Positions 1,105-5,895 of a stretch of DNA of 5,988 nucleotides are shown here, piece by piece (the stretch's first letter is position 1; each line of letters starts with the position of its first letter). The translations under genes and the position numbers were made by a program. This stretch comes from a virus. Its lineage: Duplodnaviria; Heunggongvirae; Uroviricota; Caudoviricetes. The notes beneath the pieces were generated by a model. The model was not told the DNA's origin. It did not search any database and saw only the letters and a program-made list of their open reading frames with translations. The stretch lies in IMG/VR virus record IMGVR_UViG_2534681774_000011, positions 1-5,988 of that record, one strand, 5' to 3'.

Positions 1105-3420
1105 TTGCTTTACCTGCCGCAGCTCAACAAGCACCAGATACAGACGCTGGCCACCATGACGGCGGCGATGTTCAGCAGCACCTTCGAAACACTCTGCGAT
1201 GGCTTTGGTGCCAGAGATGGCGAACTGACCATGGATGTAACGCTGAAGGCGTATCGGATGCTGGCCCGTATCGCATTACGCCTGCACATCATGCCGCCAC
1301 ATTACGACGCACTGACAACAGACAAAGACCGGAGGAACGATCCGGACACGGAACTGTTACCGGGCGCAATCCTTCGCCTGACCTGTGCGGAATGGTGGAA
1401 ACGCAAACTGTGGCTGTTACGTTGCGAGTGGAGAGAAGAACAACTCCGCGCCGCCTGTCTGGTTTCCAGAAAAACATCACCCTATCTGAGCCAGGACGCG
1501 TTAAGCGAGTTTCGCGCACAGCGCGAGAAAACACGCGATTTCCTGAAAAGTTTCATGCTGGAAAATGAAGACGGGTTCACGATTGATCTCGAGACAGTGT
1601 ATTACGCGGGAGTAAGTAACCCGGTTCACCGTAAGGCAGAAATGATGGCCACCATGAAGGGACTGGAACTTCTGGCCGAAGCCCGTGGCGACAGAGCGGT
1701 GTTTCTGACTGTCACCTGCCCGTCAAAATACCACGCAACAACGGAGAACGGTCATCCGAACCCCAAATGGAACGGGGCCACCATGCGCGACTCCAGCGAT
1801 TACCTGGTTAACACGTTTTTTGCGGCGGTCCGCAAGAAACTGAACCGCGACGGCCTGCGCTGGTATGGCATCCGCACGGTGGAGCCTCACCATGACGGAA
1901 CCGTGCACTGGCATATGATGGTCTTTGCCCATCCGGAAGAAATCGACACCATTGTGTCCCACACCCGCGATATTGCCATTCAGGAAGATCGTCACGAGCT
2001 GGGCGATGATATTACTCCGCGCTTTAAGGCGGAGTATGTAGACGGCTCAAAAGGCACGCCAACCAGCTACATCGCCACCTACATCGGAAAGAACCTGGAC
2101 AGCCGCGCCGTGGATGGCATCGACCCGAAAACGGGCAAGCCACGCGTTGACCACGAAACAGGAAAATCAATGGCCGAGAGCGTGGAGCGCGCCATCGGCT
2201 GGGCGCGCCTTCACCGGGTCCGCCAGTTCCAGTTCTTTGGCATCCCCTCCCGTCAGGTGTGGCGTGAACTCCGCCGCCTTGCCAGCCAGATGGCACGCAA
2301 CCCGGAAGGCCCGCAACGGCTGAAGGATGACGCAATGGATGCGGTTCTTGCTGCCGCTGATGCCGGATGTTTTGCCACCTACATAGAGAAACAGGGCGGC
2401 GTACTTGTTCCACGCAAAGACTACCTGATTCGCACCGCCTACGACCTCGCCGATGAGCTGAACGATTACGGCGAACAGAGCGTACAGATTTACGGGATCT
2501 GGTCACCACTCATCGGGGAATCCTCCCGTGTGTGCACGCATCCGGATAACTGGAAGCTGGTAAGACGCAAACCGGAAGCGGAAGACAGCGCCCGCGAAAA
2601 TGGTTTTGACCTTCAGGGCGGCCCTGCCGCCCCTTGGACTCGTGGCAATAACTGTCCCCGTGTACAGGAAACGGACAACAACGGGACAGAACAGTCGGAA
2701 GAACGGCCAGCACCGTGGCCGCAGCTCCCTGACGGCGTTGAAGTGAACGAATGGATGCGCTCACTGAAACGGCACGAACGCCGGGCGCTGATGCGTTCGC
2801 TTCGTGACAAACAGGCAAAAAACAGCAGTGATGAAATGCAGAGCTGGACACAGAGCCGCAAACAGCAGCGGCCTTTGCCTGATAACCACGAATTACTCGC
2901 TAAAGAATGGCGGAAGTCTGCCGAATCTCTCGGCCTGCATATCGGTGAACAGCAGATGCAGCACCTGTTACGGGGCGGCAGTCTGTACGTTGACGGCAGC
3001 ATCATTGCACCGCAGGGATTTGAAATTGTACGCAAACCGGATACCCGCCCGGACAGTCGAATCACGCAGCTCTGGCAGCACCTGAGCCGTAATCACGGCG
3101 TAAGCAGCACGGAGATCCGCCATAACCCGGTCGCCAGCTATCTGGCACAGCTGGGGGCATCAGACCCCGAAGCCGCCGCACGCCTGGCATCCGCACTTCA
3201 GCAGGATCAGAACACCATGAAAACACCCGTTACCGTGCTTTCTGACATGCTGCGCGCCATCCGCGACGCAGAGCACGCACAGAGAATCAGTGAAACCACT
3301 GAACGCGCCAGCCGCAAAGCAGACCTGCTGCAGGGTGGCCTGACCAGTGGAAACAAAAAACAGACAGAAACGGGATCCACAAATCCCGTAAATGAGCAAA
3401 AAACGCGCCGCGATATATGA
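1105..3420 (+). CDS. phage P2 gpA-family rolling-circle replication initiation endonuclease (HUH nickase); major in-frame portion, likely N-terminally incomplete as an ORF
   Basis: 771-codon ORF. Contains the HUH-type metal-binding motif VEPHHDGTVHWHMMVF (nt about 1885-1930) and paired catalytic tyrosines Y-IAT-Y-IGKN (TAC 2068-2070 and 2080-2082), characteristic of P2 A-type initiators. The ORF-track start at 1105 is TTG with no convincing SD. Coding-like sequence continues upstream in the same frame to the stop at 868-870. Confidence 0.85.
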   Translation: MLYLPQLNKHQIQTLATMTAAMFSSTFETLCDGFGARDGELTMDVTLKAYRMLARIALRLHIMPPHYDALTTDKDRRNDPDTELLPGAILRLTCAEWWKRKLWLLRCEWREEQLRAACLVSRKTSPYLSQDALSEFRAQREKTRDFLKSFMLENEDGFTIDLETVYYAGVSNPVHRKAEMMATMKGLELLAEARGDRAVFLTVTCPSKYHATTENGHPNPKWNGATMRDSSDYLVNTFFAAVRKKLNRDGLRWYGIRTVEPHHDGTVHWHMMVFAHPEEIDTIVSHTRDIAIQEDRHELGDDITPRFKAEYVDGSKGTPTSYIATYIGKNLDSRAVDGIDPKTGKPRVDHETGKSMAESVERAIGWARLHRVRQFQFFGIPSRQVWRELRRLASQMARNPEGPQRLKDDAMDAVLAAADAGCFATYIEKQGGVLVPRKDYLIRTAYDLADELNDYGEQSVQIYGIWSPLIGESSRVCTHPDNWKLVRRKPEAEDSARENGFDLQGGPAAPWTRGNNCPRVQETDNNGTEQSEERPAPWPQLPDGVEVNEWMRSLKRHERRALMRSLRDKQAKNSSDEMQSWTQSRKQQRPLPDNHELLAKEWRKSAESLGLHIGEQQMQHLLRGGSLYVDGSIIAPQGFEIVRKPDTRPDSRITQLWQHLSRNHGVSSTEIRHNPVASYLAQLGASDPEAAARLASALQQDQNTMKTPVTVLSDMLRAIRDAEHAQRISETTERASRKADLLQGGLTSGNKKQTETGSTNPVNEQKTRRDI
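3368..3392. repeat. copy 1 of a 25-bp repeat containing a 7-bp-arm palindrome (AAACGGGAT-N6-ATCCCGTAAA); candidate centromere/operator or origin element
   Basis: aaACGGGATccacaaATCCCGTaaa. Arms ACGGGAT and ATCCCGT are perfect reverse complements separated by 6 nt. It lies inside the last 50 nt of the gpA-like ORF. Confidence 0.55.
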
Positions 3421-3496
3421 AGCGCGCACAAAACAGGCAAAAACGGGATTTCAGAATCCCGTAAACGATTAATTAATCAACATAAGGAAAAGCGAC
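3421..3496 (+). promoter_or_regulatory. putative promoter/operator region of the parM-parR operon
   Basis: AT-rich 76-bp intergenic stretch (..cgattaattaatcaacataaggaaaagcgac) with SD AAGGA at 3484-3488 and palindrome copy 2 overlapping the likely promoter. In known ParMRC loci the ParR-bound repeats flank the par promoter. No precise -35/-10 could be assigned with confidence. Confidence 0.35.
3441..3465. repeat. copy 2 of the same 25-bp palindrome-containing repeat, in the intergenic region upstream of parM
   Basis: aaACGGGATttcagaATCCCGTaaa. Arms and flanks are identical to copy 1 and only the 6-nt spacer differs. It is 73 bp downstream of copy 1 and about 30 bp upstream of the parM ribosome-binding site. 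Confidence 0.55.
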
Positions 3497-4460: not shown

Positions 4461-4772
4461 ATGACGACACCAACCAGACGGATAAGTTTCTATCTGAAGC
4501 CCGCCGCCGTCAAGAACGAAGGCGAAGCATGCGCCTGGCTGGACAGCCTTACACCAGAAGCCCGCAAAAGTGGTCAACGCGTGGCTTTTCTGGCCGGGCT
4601 GGCACTACTGAAAATGAATCCGGCAGAGGCTTACCGACTGGCTGCATGGGCTGATGATGAGGCGTTATCAGTGACACAAACCAGGACAGAACGCCCCGCG
4701 TCACAGCCAGTATCAGCCGCACAGATAACCAGTCAGATGGCCGGAAATATCCGGGCGTTATTTCCCGAATAA
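4461..4772 (+). CDS. parR: ParR/StbB-like centromere-binding adaptor of the type II partition system
   Basis: 104 aa from ATG 4461, with SD AAGGAG at 4448-4453, 4 nt after the parM stop. The N-terminal region RRISFYLKPAAV...LDSLTPEARKSGQRVAFLAGLALL resembles R1 ParR as recalled (RRTIAFKLNPDV...LDSIPQGERSRLNRAALTAGLALY). The ORF-track start at 4326 is an upstream in-frame extension overlapping parM and is not used. Confidence 0.75.
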   Translation: MTTPTRRISFYLKPAAVKNEGEACAWLDSLTPEARKSGQRVAFLAGLALLKMNPAEAYRLAAWADDEALSVTQTRTERPASQPVSAAQITSQMAGNIRALFPE

Positions 4773-4777
4773 CACAA

Positions 4778-4801
4778 CATCAGGGCGCATCCGCCCTGAT
4801 G
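4778..4801 (+). terminator. perfect 10-bp-stem/4-nt-loop GC-rich hairpin immediately after parR; possible terminator or module-boundary structure (no U-tract)
   Basis: CATCAGGGCG-catc-CGCCCTGATG begins 6 nt after the parR stop. It is followed by ACTTTAACCC rather than a T-run, so it is not a canonical intrinsic terminator. Composition shifts to lower GC downstream. Confidence 0.3.
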
Positions 4802-4835
4802 ACTTTAACCCGGGAGCATAAACAAGGGGGACACA

Positions 4836-5168
4836 ATGCAACACATTGACAGAGAAAAAGCGCAGCGACTGATTGAGCGGATGGAAGCGCTGGCGAAAGA
4901 AGAAAATGTCAACATCCAAAAAATAGCTGAATGTGGCCAGATAGTTCTTCGTCGTGAAAAAGACCTCAAACAACTGATGTCTGGCGAAACCAGCAAAACA
5001 TGGACTTCAGGTGAGGAGACGATTTATTGCAGCTTCTGCAATAAATCCCAGTACGAAGTCACAAAGGTGATTGCTGGACCGTCTGTTTACATCTGCAATG
5101 AGTGCGTGGATTTGTGCAATGAAATTATCAGGAGAGAAGTGACAGACAAAAAGGGAAAAAACGCATGA
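4836..5168 (+). CDS. small protein with a C-terminal ClpX-type C4 zinc-binding domain (zf-C4_ClpX-like), standalone and lacking an AAA+ module
   Basis: 110 aa. SD GGGGGA lies 5-6 nt before ATG 4836. The C-terminus ...[38 protein letters not shown] nearly matches the ClpX N-domain as recalled ([39 protein letters not shown]), with the four Zn-ligand cysteines CSFC...CNEC. The N-terminal 70 aa are predicted helical and charged. Confidence 0.8.
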
Positions 5169-5500
5169 ACAGAAAACAAAAACAAGAGTTGAAATACTTC
5201 TTACGTAAAGAAATTGCCAGGCTTGAAGATGCAGAATCACAATCATCAGAAATTCCGTTCGGAATGGATATCAACGACGCCCGTATACTCCAGGCATACC
5301 GCATAGCTCAGGCTGCACTACAGGCAAAACCGTCAGATGGACTGGTTAGAGCAGTACGTTTCTATGAACTGGTAAAGCGTGAGAATCCGCCAGTCGAAAC
5401 CGGAGCATGGAAAGACGCTGTTGACTGGGTGCTCAAAGAGGCTTGCCATGTTGTAAATATTGGTATCAAGGGAGGGGGATATGGCAACCAACAACCGTAA
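5165..5500 (+). CDS. hypothetical protein, 111 aa, translationally coupled to the ClpX-ZBD-like gene
   Basis: ATG 5165 overlaps the upstream TGA (5166-5168) in an ATGA arrangement. The translation is protein-like and no motif was recognised. Confidence 0.65.
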
Positions 5501-5675
5501 AGCAAAGATTCTGTTAGTTCGCAGAAACGATCCAGGCGTATGGCAGTGGGTGAGACTCAGCAACCGACGAATTGGGTTGATGAAATATTACGGGATGATG
5601 GATTGCGGTTTTTGCAAAAAGCCCAGCGCGGCGCAAAACCGCTGGAAAAACCACTTTCGCATTAAAGGAGAGTGA
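5481..5675 (+). CDS. hypothetical small basic protein, 64 aa
   Basis: ATG 5481 is preceded by a strong SD AAGGGAGGGGG (5468-5478) and overlaps the 3' end of the preceding ORF by 20 nt. The protein is lysine/arginine-rich ([23 protein letters not shown]...). The ORF-track start at 5460 is rejected in favour of the SD-backed ATG. Confidence 0.5.
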   Translation: MATNNRKAKILLVRRNDPGVWQWVRLSNRRIGLMKYYGMMDCGFCKKPSAAQNRWKNHFRIKGE

Positions 5676-5676
5676 G

Positions 5677-5895
5677 GTGCCTACACTATTCAGGAAAAAC
5701 TATCCGCGAAAGAGTAGAGCAATAGAATTTCTGTTTCTCATTCTGTTTATCGTGTTGATGATACCGATATCCCCGCTAATTTTTATCTGGGCAATCGGGA
5801 AAATAATTGAGCCAGTTATTGAATTGTATAACGACGTGGTATGGGCGTCGTTCAACACATTGCACAATAAAATTAATCCGTATAAGGAAAACTGA
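5677..5895 (+). CDS. hypothetical small membrane protein, 72 aa, with one long hydrophobic helix
   Basis: GTG 5677 lies 1 nt after the upstream TGA, with SD AAAGGAG (5664-5670) 6 nt upstream. The hydrophobic segment AIEFLFLILFIVLMIPISPLIFIWAIG is flanked by basic residues. The region is markedly AT-rich. The antisense ORF 5700-5969 is considered spurious. Confidence 0.5.
   Translation: MPTLFRKNYPRKSRAIEFLFLILFIVLMIPISPLIFIWAIGKIIEPVIELYNDVVWASFNTLHNKINPYKEN

Follow-up and report, generated by a model that had tools for sequence, protein, structure and literature searches.

The gene at 4836-5168 of the window (the whole 5988-bp stretch of DNA that was analysed) codes for a protein of 110 aa in which, as judged by alignment and structure modelling, the C-terminal 45 residues are a faithful copy of the zinc-binding N-domain (ZBD) of the host unfoldase ClpX, and the N-terminal ~50 residues form a helical hairpin. 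The match to the ClpX ZBD is far beyond chance. Our preferred reading, held tentatively, is that the phage protein acts as a free, dimeric mimic of the ClpX N-domain that competes for docking adaptors and substrates, which we regard as plausible while stopping short of calling it probable. Zinc binding, dimerisation, the binding of ClpX partners and the physiological target are features that we infer.

The window comes from a P88-like prophage of Escherichia coli (genus Xuanwuvirus, P2-like Peduoviridae) and covers its early/replication end. This bears out the suggestion of a preliminary description, made from the sequence alone, that the gene is carried by a mobile element. It aligns with phage P88 over 91% of the length at 97% identity, and along its whole length it matches prophages in E. 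coli chromosomes at 98.7%. Annotated loci that are nearly identical give the gene order: a small ORF comes first, followed by the genes for the replication endonuclease gpA, for ParM and for a ParR/StbB-type partition protein, then the ZBD gene, and after it four to five small ORFs, with the portal and terminase genes lying on the opposite strand past the window end. The features in and around the ZBD gene are as follows.

4778-4801, no strand assigned: 10-bp GC-rich hairpin, an inverted repeat between the parR stop codon and the ZBD gene
4824-4831, + strand: Shine-Dalgarno-like sequence AAGGGGGA, 4 nt 5' of the ATG, read from the sequence
4836-5168, + strand: CDS of the hairpin-ZBD protein (ORF of 110 aa, ATG start; phrog_6797; RefSeq WP_001163780-type)
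4851-4979, + strand: predicted N-terminal helical hairpin, residues 6-48 (helices 6-23 and 27-48), from the AlphaFold2 model and family alignment
4980-5021, + strand: predicted flexible linker, residues 49-62, of low pLDDT and variable in length and sequence
5022-5150, + strand: ClpX-type zinc-binding domain (ZBD), residues 63-105, from PF06689, structure overlay and alignment
5165-5500, + strand: ORF of 111 aa, the start of which overlaps the stop codon of the ZBD gene (ATGA)

The ZBD gene comes after the early/partition genes, which share its strand, with the GC-rich hairpin at 4778-4801 in front of it, and no promoter was detected directly upstream of it. The hairpin has a fold energy of -22.9 kcal/mol (z -3.2) and is without a U-tract on the + strand, and it may act as a weak terminator or attenuator. 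It also marks where the conserved backbone gives way to variable cargo of low GC content. The GC content drops from 0.57 to 0.44 at about 4780, the homology of other P88-like phages to the window stops at 4772-4798, and the interval between parR and the portal gene is filled in those phages by quite different genes, so that the ZBD gene is the first gene of the cargo. The 111-aa ORF is probably translationally coupled to the ZBD gene in the allele of the window. It matches phrog_26213 and phrog_660, both of unknown function, and was found by tblastn in 25 of 38 P88-type loci, while clusters c29, c43 and c57 replace it in the rest. An obligate pairing of the two genes was considered and rejected, as the 111-aa ORF is absent or replaced in about one third of P88-type loci and in all other subfamilies of the ZBD gene. 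In PADLOC it gave one insignificant match (E 0.026).

The domain assignment of the C-terminal part is secure. Residues 64-99 match the Pfam family zf-C4_ClpX (PF06689) with an E-value of 8.2e-18 and 64.5 bits (gathering score 27), covering positions 2-38 of the 39 in the profile. Over ClpX residues 14-53 the protein shares 31 of 40 residues with E. coli ClpX, in agreement with the earlier view of a stand-alone ClpX ZBD homologue that retains all four cysteines. No other zinc-finger family rose above threshold in the Pfam scan; the runner-up, PF10497, reached 13.3 bits, which is below its own cut-off, and so the possibility, raised in the same description, that an unrelated zinc ribbon might score better was not realised. 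The zinc-site spacing, C-x2-C-x18-C-x2-C, is that of ClpX, with C65, C68, C87 and C90 aligning to ClpX C15, C18, C37 and C40, and these four predicted zinc ligands are invariant across 32 distinct ZBDs of the family. By the same alignment, F67 is the equivalent of ClpX Phe16 and I97 that of Ile46. The top matches among solved structures are the E. coli ClpX ZBD entries 1OVX and 2DS5-8 (E about 1e-19). The similarity begins near ClpX residue 13 and ends near residue 53, which are the borders of the structural domain. Searches with the full-length ClpX equivalogs TIGR00382 and NF003745 reached 50.2 bits (cut-off 370.75) and 48.7 bits (cut-off 359), and the match is confined to model positions 3-52, while the protein ends at residue 110; with scores this far under the cut-offs and only these positions matched, there is no AAA+ ATPase, which agrees with the preliminary description. 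Pfam and NCBIfam returned only ClpX ZBD matches, with no membership of the SspB, RssB, IraD/M/P or CpdR families. A search of PADLOC-DB 2.0 found no defence-model match for the ZBD protein, and assignment to a defence system was rejected for that reason.

The existing annotations are in line with these results. The RefSeq/PGAP name, taken from the annotation of a 98.7% identical locus, is "ClpX C4-type zinc finger protein", and the protein matches phrog_6797 (PHROGs, function unknown) with an E-value of 1.5e-58, residues 1-106 aligning to profile positions 5-107 of 107. Older records call the gene "carboxylate--amine ligase", a name that is unsupported. Since the domain assignment is already present in RefSeq and PHROGs, the observation itself is not new.

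An AlphaFold2 model, built from a 10-sequence family alignment (mean pLDDT 80), predicts helices at residues 6-23 and 27-48, disorder at 53-59, and the ZBD at 63-105, in keeping with the helical N-terminal region described from the sequence. The pLDDT values are 74-92 in the hairpin blocks and below 50 at residues 53-59. In Foldseek, the modelled ZBD superimposes on 2DS5_A with an rmsd of 0.7 Å over 40 columns at 75% identity. The hairpin was never matched by Foldseek in either PDB or BFVD, where hits were to the ZBD part, and no known fold or domain was found for it, as Pfam offered nothing above noise (NAF, E 0.099). Such a hairpin of helices is too generic to be assigned. The hairpin is amphipathic and could serve as a second dimerisation element or make a specific contact. 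In the family alignment E17 and E23 are invariant, R40 and G50 nearly so, and C33 is kept in most members. When a profile of the hairpin alone was run against 1.84e9 representative proteins, all intact copies were fused to a ZBD; apart from these it matched only truncated copies and, in three long proteins, short stretches of repetitive sequence. The hairpin and the ZBD are therefore an obligate pair. The linker between them tolerates insertions of up to 11 residues (P0019 and P0123).

At the DNA level, the ZBD core shares only 66% nucleotide identity with E. coli clpX, and the same codon is used at 11 of the 31 identical residues. A recent capture of the host clpX gene was accordingly rejected, given this identity and the different codons at 20 of those 31 positions. 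Synonymous sites relative to clpX are saturated and the protein is conserved, which argues for an old copy that selection has maintained. Across 23 distinct P88-type alleles, pN/pS comes to 0.38 for the hairpin, 0.46 for the ZBD and 0.76 for the linker, values that indicate moderate purifying selection on both folded parts.

The pattern of constraint was compared with that of 79 proteobacterial ClpX ZBDs taken from real clpX loci, in which 28 of 41 positions are invariant and 34 of 41 are at least 94% conserved. Positions given in this paragraph follow ClpX numbering with Met1 counted unless stated otherwise, so that F17 and I47 are the Phe16 and Ile46 of the literature. Measured against the ClpX consensus of at least 90%, the allele of the window carries five changes (L13I, G19N, H23Y, L28V and D38N). 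Across the hairpin-ZBD family, the ClpX-invariant positions G19, H23, E24, L28, P32, S33, L43 and D46 vary, and the full list of variable positions adds K27, I47 and R49. Alleles of the D6-type subfamily have L43 changed to D, V or A, P32-S33 to D-N, D-A or D-D, and also D42K; they read IAGD[NAD]VFIC, together with CVKDC, CVDVC or CVEAC. Some P88-type alleles carry Y85C or C94Y/F, numbered along the phage protein. Kept in all family members are the zinc ligands, S16, F17, I29, G31, I36, E39 and V41, and in at least 94% of the family V25, A30, V34, C44, N45 and I48; the positions that are invariant in both the ClpX set and the family are S16, F17, I29, G31, E39 and the four zinc cysteines. At the position equivalent to Ile46, 78% of family ZBDs have Ile and 16% have Val, and the Phe16 equivalent is invariant. 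In an alignment of 15 members (38–95% identity), the invariant ZBD residues, in the numbering of the phage protein, are the four cysteines, S66, F67, V75, G81, I86, V91 and C94. Fold, core and part of the docking pocket are thus retained in the family, under a constraint that is below that of the full ClpX set. The drift at ClpX-invariant positions may mean that the ClpX interaction surface is kept only partly, or that none of it is kept.

Of 5426 complete E. coli genomes, 112 (about 2%) carry the P88-type allele, that of the pathogen UTI89 among them. The allele lies directly 3' of parR in 38 IMG/VR loci, wherever the upstream region is present. Three P88-type backbones (L150, L155 and L156) hold a 46–50% identical allele at the same place. 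In P2-like prophages of Salmonella and of other E. coli, the gene lies between gpA and the portal, in alleles that are 44% and 54% identical. These P2-like contexts have no ParMR, so a link to ParMR as a general feature was rejected, and the idea that the protein might stabilise the partition proteins of its element finds no support. A D6-type subfamily (46–52% identity) occurs in phage D6, in the ~108-kb phages PhiR41_1 and CMS-2020a, and in about 94 non-mobilisable plasmids of 89–120 kb from E. coli, Salmonella and Shigella; the phage-plasmid copies lie within arrays of small accessory genes of the Ead/Ea22, EaA, DUF551 and DUF4014 types. No conserved neighbouring or partner gene was found across more than 60 loci. 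The gene is missing from many P88-like phages, and truncated or frameshifted copies (P0010, P0014, P0018, P0126 and P0127) are common enough to indicate that it is dispensable. A scan of genome contigs with the family alignment gave no further family members; as ZBD motifs make up the most conserved peptides, authentic clpX genes flooded the scan, and the two apparently longer matches (L015 and L050) were ordinary tig-clpP-clpX loci.

Proteins that consist of a ZBD only, 59–73 aa in length, are encoded by unrelated phages. In Klebsiella lambdoid phages the gene order is cII, ZBD, replication initiator and DnaC; in the Pseudomonas D3-like phage PP9W2 the ZBD gene comes after primosomal and DnaB genes and beside a DksA-like gene; and in the virulent Pakpunavirus EM it is found in an array with Ead/Ea22 and DUF551 genes. 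Free ZBDs are a recurrent phage invention and tend to sit near replication or early genes. As the ZBD-only proteins possess no other domain, the ZBD alone must carry the function there. Outside phages, actinobacterial proteins combine an N-terminal ZBD with an unrelated C-terminal region, and ZBD domains also occur in cyanobacterial sigma factors (PMC11119718).

The biology of ClpX gives these observations a possible meaning. ClpXP controls sigma-S, SOS mutagenesis proteins, antitoxins, division proteins and several phage and plasmid replication proteins, and phage Mu requires ClpX for the remodelling of the MuA transpososome. Degrons of the ssrA and AA types are read by the ClpX pore and not by the ZBD. 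The ZBD dimer is a docking platform for adaptors and some substrates (PMC7226468, PMC7804408), and lambda O is not degraded without it (PMC7804408). Phe16 and Ile46 lie in a hydrophobic side pocket that overlaps the lambda-O site, and TF, SspB and RssB also bind there (PMC7804408). When supplied in trans in increasing amounts, purified E. coli ZBD inhibits the RssB-mediated breakdown of sigma-S by ClpXP in vitro (PMC7226468), which means that the activity proposed here needs no more than a free ZBD.

In the mechanism that we favour, the hairpin-ZBD protein would form a free, cytoplasmic and probably homodimeric N-domain, joined by the ZBD and possibly by the hairpin as well. Each host ClpX hexamer has three ZBD dimers, and the free domain would vie with these for docking proteins, namely the adaptors SspB (through its tail), RssB and UmuD, and N-domain-dependent substrates such as replication initiators of the lambda-O type and MuA transpososomes. 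The predicted outcome is a selective damping of N-domain-dependent ClpXP degradation and ClpX remodelling, while substrates recognised by the pore (ssrA-type tags) would be degraded as before. An inhibitor, decoy or adaptor of ClpXP had been suggested in the preliminary description, and the suggestion is plausible. The position of the gene hints at replication or early proteins of the phage itself as the target. That the neighbouring genes are not conserved but the ZBD gene is kept fits a protein acting on a host component. Also in favour of competition for docking partners are the invariant Phe16 and the Ile or Val at the Ile46 equivalent in 94% of family ZBDs, and the recurrence of ZBD-only proteins in unrelated phages. 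On the other side, the family ZBD is less constrained than that of real ClpX, and pN/pS values of about 0.4–0.5 indicate a constraint that is only moderate; a pure decoy would have no role for a conserved hairpin with its E17 and E23; and the gene is dispensable and has no detected upstream promoter, while the effect in vitro was seen with increasing amounts of added ZBD.

Several other explanations were weighed against this one, and two of them stay alive mainly because the hairpin is conserved like the ZBD. The ZBD may be a mere zinc-stabilised dimeriser, as in CsfB, with the hairpin as the effector that acts on some target with no relation to ClpX, such as a sigma factor, a repressor or a replication or division protein. 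Such a role would account for the similar conservation of the two parts (pN/pS 0.38 for the hairpin against 0.46 for the ZBD), for the invariant acidic residues E17 and E23, for the failure to find an intact hairpin without a ZBD, and for the drift of ClpX-invariant surface positions around a fixed core and fixed zinc ligands. It also has precedents, as CsfB puts a ClpX-like treble-clef dimer to a non-Clp use (PMC5890618), and ZBDs are built into other architectures, including the actinobacterial proteins and the cyanobacterial sigma factors (PMC11119718). However, an identity to ClpX of 72–78% exceeds what a dimeriser needs (that of CsfB is about 20%; PMC5890618), the Phe16 equivalent is invariant and the Ile46 equivalent mostly hydrophobic, the ZBD-only phage proteins have no second domain to serve as effector, and the hairpin matched no known binding domain. 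We consider a dimeriser role doubtful, though worth keeping in view. The other explanation that leans on the hairpin is that the phage ZBD pairs with the ZBD of ClpX itself, either as a dominant-negative cap, disrupting the dimeric docking sites, or as a built-in adaptor with a hairpin that brings cargo, and this seems to us unlikely. The ClpX ZBD dimer is very stable and constitutive, which makes exchange with assembled ClpX improbable, and an amphipathic hairpin, as a potential second dimerisation element, would favour homodimers. The helix changes L43D and D42K in D6-type alleles could affect pairing as well. In favour of pairing, the ClpX ZBD dimerises via its C-terminal helix and beta-hairpins (PMC5890618), the core residues are largely the same as in host ClpX, and the flexible 14-residue linker of the model would let the hairpin reach across the ring; adaptor-like phage modulators of Clp ATPases do exist, such as SPO1 Gp53 for ClpC (PMC6873191).

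The same biochemistry could also serve a different role, that of lysogenic conversion or superinfection exclusion, either by blocking ClpX N-domain functions that competitors such as Mu need or by raising sigma-S in the lysogen. We think this improbable. The AA-type degrons are, as general knowledge has it, read by the pore rather than the ZBD, PADLOC gave no match, and a promoter belonging to the gene was not detected; in addition, some relatives belong to a virulent phage and others head lambdoid replication operons, a sign of expression in the lytic cycle. What speaks for exclusion is the place of the gene, first in the hypervariable cargo that, in a P2-like prophage, separates the portal gene from the replication/partition genes, a region known to carry defence systems, for example the ClpXP-dependent CmdTAC/PD-T4-9 (bioRxiv 10.1101/2024.02.24.581848), along with the stabilisation of sigma-S by free ZBD in vitro (PMC7226468). 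Finally, the gene could be a decaying, functionless fragment of a captured clpX 5' end, as the truncated and frameshifted copies and its absence from many P88-like phages might suggest. This we judge highly improbable, for the frame has stayed open across alleles of 38–95% identity in three kinds of element, pN/pS is below 1 in both domains, the ribosome-binding site is good, and the protein is conserved relative to clpX while synonymous sites are saturated.

If the competition mechanism is extended beyond the present gene, free ClpX N-domain mimics, with or without a hairpin, could be a recurrent and unrecognised phage strategy that titrates ClpX docking and so shields replication initiators and other N-domain-dependent substrates, with the stabilisation of sigma-S and UmuD' and the exclusion of ClpX-dependent competitors such as Mu as side effects; a virus would here, for the first time, disarm a host AAA+ protease with a copy of that protease's docking domain. 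This wider proposal is speculative, and we would not call it likely. The kinds of element named for it, in which the mimics would sit beside replication or early genes, are P2-like, lambdoid, P1/D6-like and ~109-kb phage-plasmid elements, and virulent phages. If true, mimicry of a protease's own domain would be a new phage-host interface and a new variant among phage modulators of AAA+ proteases, and it could explain how some temperate phages protect unstable replication or regulatory proteins. The stress resistance or mutagenesis of lysogens could be altered, and a selective tool would become available to switch off only the N-domain-dependent branch of ClpXP. If the ZBD merely dimerises the hairpin, the family would be an ordinary small phage accessory protein.

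One comparable known system is the ZBD that acts as an in-trans competitor in vitro (PMC7226468), which is likewise a free ZBD without an ATPase, and the inhibition of adaptor delivery that it causes is the activity proposed for the phage protein. The difference is that it is a laboratory fragment of ClpX, whereas the phage protein is the product of a natural, diverged gene and carries a hairpin. The anti-sigma factor CsfB/Gin of Bacillus is also a small, stand-alone, ClpX-like dimeric treble-clef protein with a helical segment, but it shares about 20% identity with ClpX and its relatedness is doubtful, compared with 72–78% for the phage ZBD (PMC5890618). The ZBD-only phage proteins (phrog_12435 and phrog_5259), such as gp081 of PP9W2, the 'ClpX superfamily protein' of Klebsiella phage ST974-OXA48phi18.2 and gp107 of phage EM, are similarly free ClpX-type ZBDs in early, replication or accessory regions of phage genomes; they differ in the absence of the hairpin, share 35–48% identity over the ZBD and are also uncharacterised, and a literature search did not find a functional study of any stand-alone phage ZBD. 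With the N-domain of ClpX itself, the protein shares, according to the alignment and the model, the fold, the C-x2-C-x18-C-x2-C site, 31 of 40 residues and Phe16. The extra parts lie on opposite sides, as ClpX extends C-terminally of the ZBD into the AAA+ module while the hairpin of the phage protein is N-terminal, and the phage allele is changed at the ClpX-invariant positions G19, H23 and D38, with further changes at E24, P32, S33 and L43 elsewhere in the family.

Similar outcomes are reached by proteins of other folds. The anti-adaptors IraD, IraM and IraP, some of which are encoded in horizontally acquired DNA, bind RssB and have folds unrelated to the ZBD. The would-be effect on sigma-S is the same, that is, a block of RssB-dependent delivery to ClpXP; however, the Ira proteins bind RssB, whereas the phage protein would imitate the docking site on ClpX, and it has no Pfam match to the Ira families. 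T4 PinA and T7 Gp4.5 are inhibitors of Lon, and lambda RexB is also a phage modulator of a host AAA+ protease. Together with SPO1 Gp53 (PMC6873191), these resemble the hairpin-ZBD protein in being small early or accessory phage proteins that retune ATP-dependent proteolysis of the host, as the phage ZBD is presumed to do, but their sequences are unrelated to it and none of them copies a domain of its target protease.

Members of the hairpin-ZBD family (phrog_6797) are widely annotated in GenBank and RefSeq as "carboxylate--amine ligase", including the phage products P88 gp19 and D6 orf93 as well as numerous proteins of E. coli (among them the search hits P0001, P0003 and P0004). None of the profile searches run gave support to this name, and it therefore looks like a propagated misannotation.

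ZBDs without the helical hairpin are found in other genetic settings, as proteins of only 59–73 aa. The genes lie at the following positions of their loci:

Locus L159, 2995-3192: ZBD-only protein
Locus L160, 3001-3222: ZBD-only protein
Locus L161, 2501-2689: ZBD-only protein
Locus L162, 3001-3180: ZBD-only protein

In Klebsiella lambdoid phages, the ZBD-only gene is flanked by cII and the replication initiator, and in Pseudomonas D3-like phages it lies 3' of the replication genes and adjoins a DksA-like gene. The virulent Pseudomonas phage EM also encodes a ZBD-only protein. In MK416022 the gene is unannotated and a minus-strand ORF has been called in its place. Proteins of metagenomic or actinobacterial type (P0031, P0061, P0085 and P0116) represent a separate family of about 136 aa. 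Here the ZBD is N-terminal, and the conserved C-terminal region behind it closes with GVSWxRIGExLGxxxQxAWERFSGE. This region looks like a DNA-binding helix-turn-helix, and the family would be a further, non-phage use of a stand-alone ZBD.

UmuD/UmuD' is a classical ClpXP substrate that depends on the ClpX N-domain. A gene for a UmuD'-like S24 peptidase (humD-type) is located 3.5–6.4 kb downstream of the ZBD gene, and on the same strand, in phage D6 (L010) and in two elements of ~108 kb, PhiR41_1 (L011) and p09EL50 of E. coli O104:H4 (L158). No UmuD'-like gene was found in the examined regions of P88-type prophages. The linkage may have a biological meaning or may be a coincidence.

The features surrounding the ZBD gene are as follows:

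599-1060 and 1105-3420: gpA (replication endonuclease) as two ORFs, with a frameshift near 955 by comparison with P88 and the FDAARGOS_1059 prophage
3381-3389 (+), 3443-3451 (-) and 3455-3463 (+): AAATCCCGT repeats of the gpA-parM region (3381-3463)
4778-4801: 10-bp GC hairpin (-22.9 kcal/mol, z = -3.2), without a U-tract on the + strand
5165-5500: ORF of 111 aa, starting within the stop codon of the ZBD gene (ATGA)
5481-5675: ORF, phrog_1380
5677-5895: ORF, DUF4014, phrog_1832

Phage P88 has gpA as a single gene of 940 aa, and so does the FDAARGOS_1059 prophage. Relative to these references the frame is broken by the loss of 1 nt near position 955 (AAAAAACAGGAA-TCGACC). Either the prophage is cryptic and defective in replication, or the sequence contains an error at this point. 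The 76-bp gpA-parM spacer carries three copies of AAATCCCGT, which are candidates for a parC centromere or ParR-binding sites. In the literature, P88 has been pointed out as a potential phage-plasmid that would exist in an integrated and an episomal state (PMC7969092).

The GC hairpin, which is stable, is placed exactly where the conserved backbone gives way to the variable, low-GC cargo. It might act as a weak terminator or an attenuator, stabilise an RNA 3' end, or mark a recombination boundary. Within the cargo, the N-terminal ~55 residues of the 111-aa protein are joined to two different C-terminal modules across prophages (clusters c13 and c63), and the protein's C-terminal half gives matches to two families of unknown function, phrog_660 and phrog_26213; this is module shuffling like that in Ead/Ea22-type arrays. 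The two following ORFs share 93–94% DNA identity with genes found in lambdoid phages that are Stx-converting (933W L0066-L0068, VT2-Sakai), and the cargo block is therefore common to P2-like and lambdoid phages.
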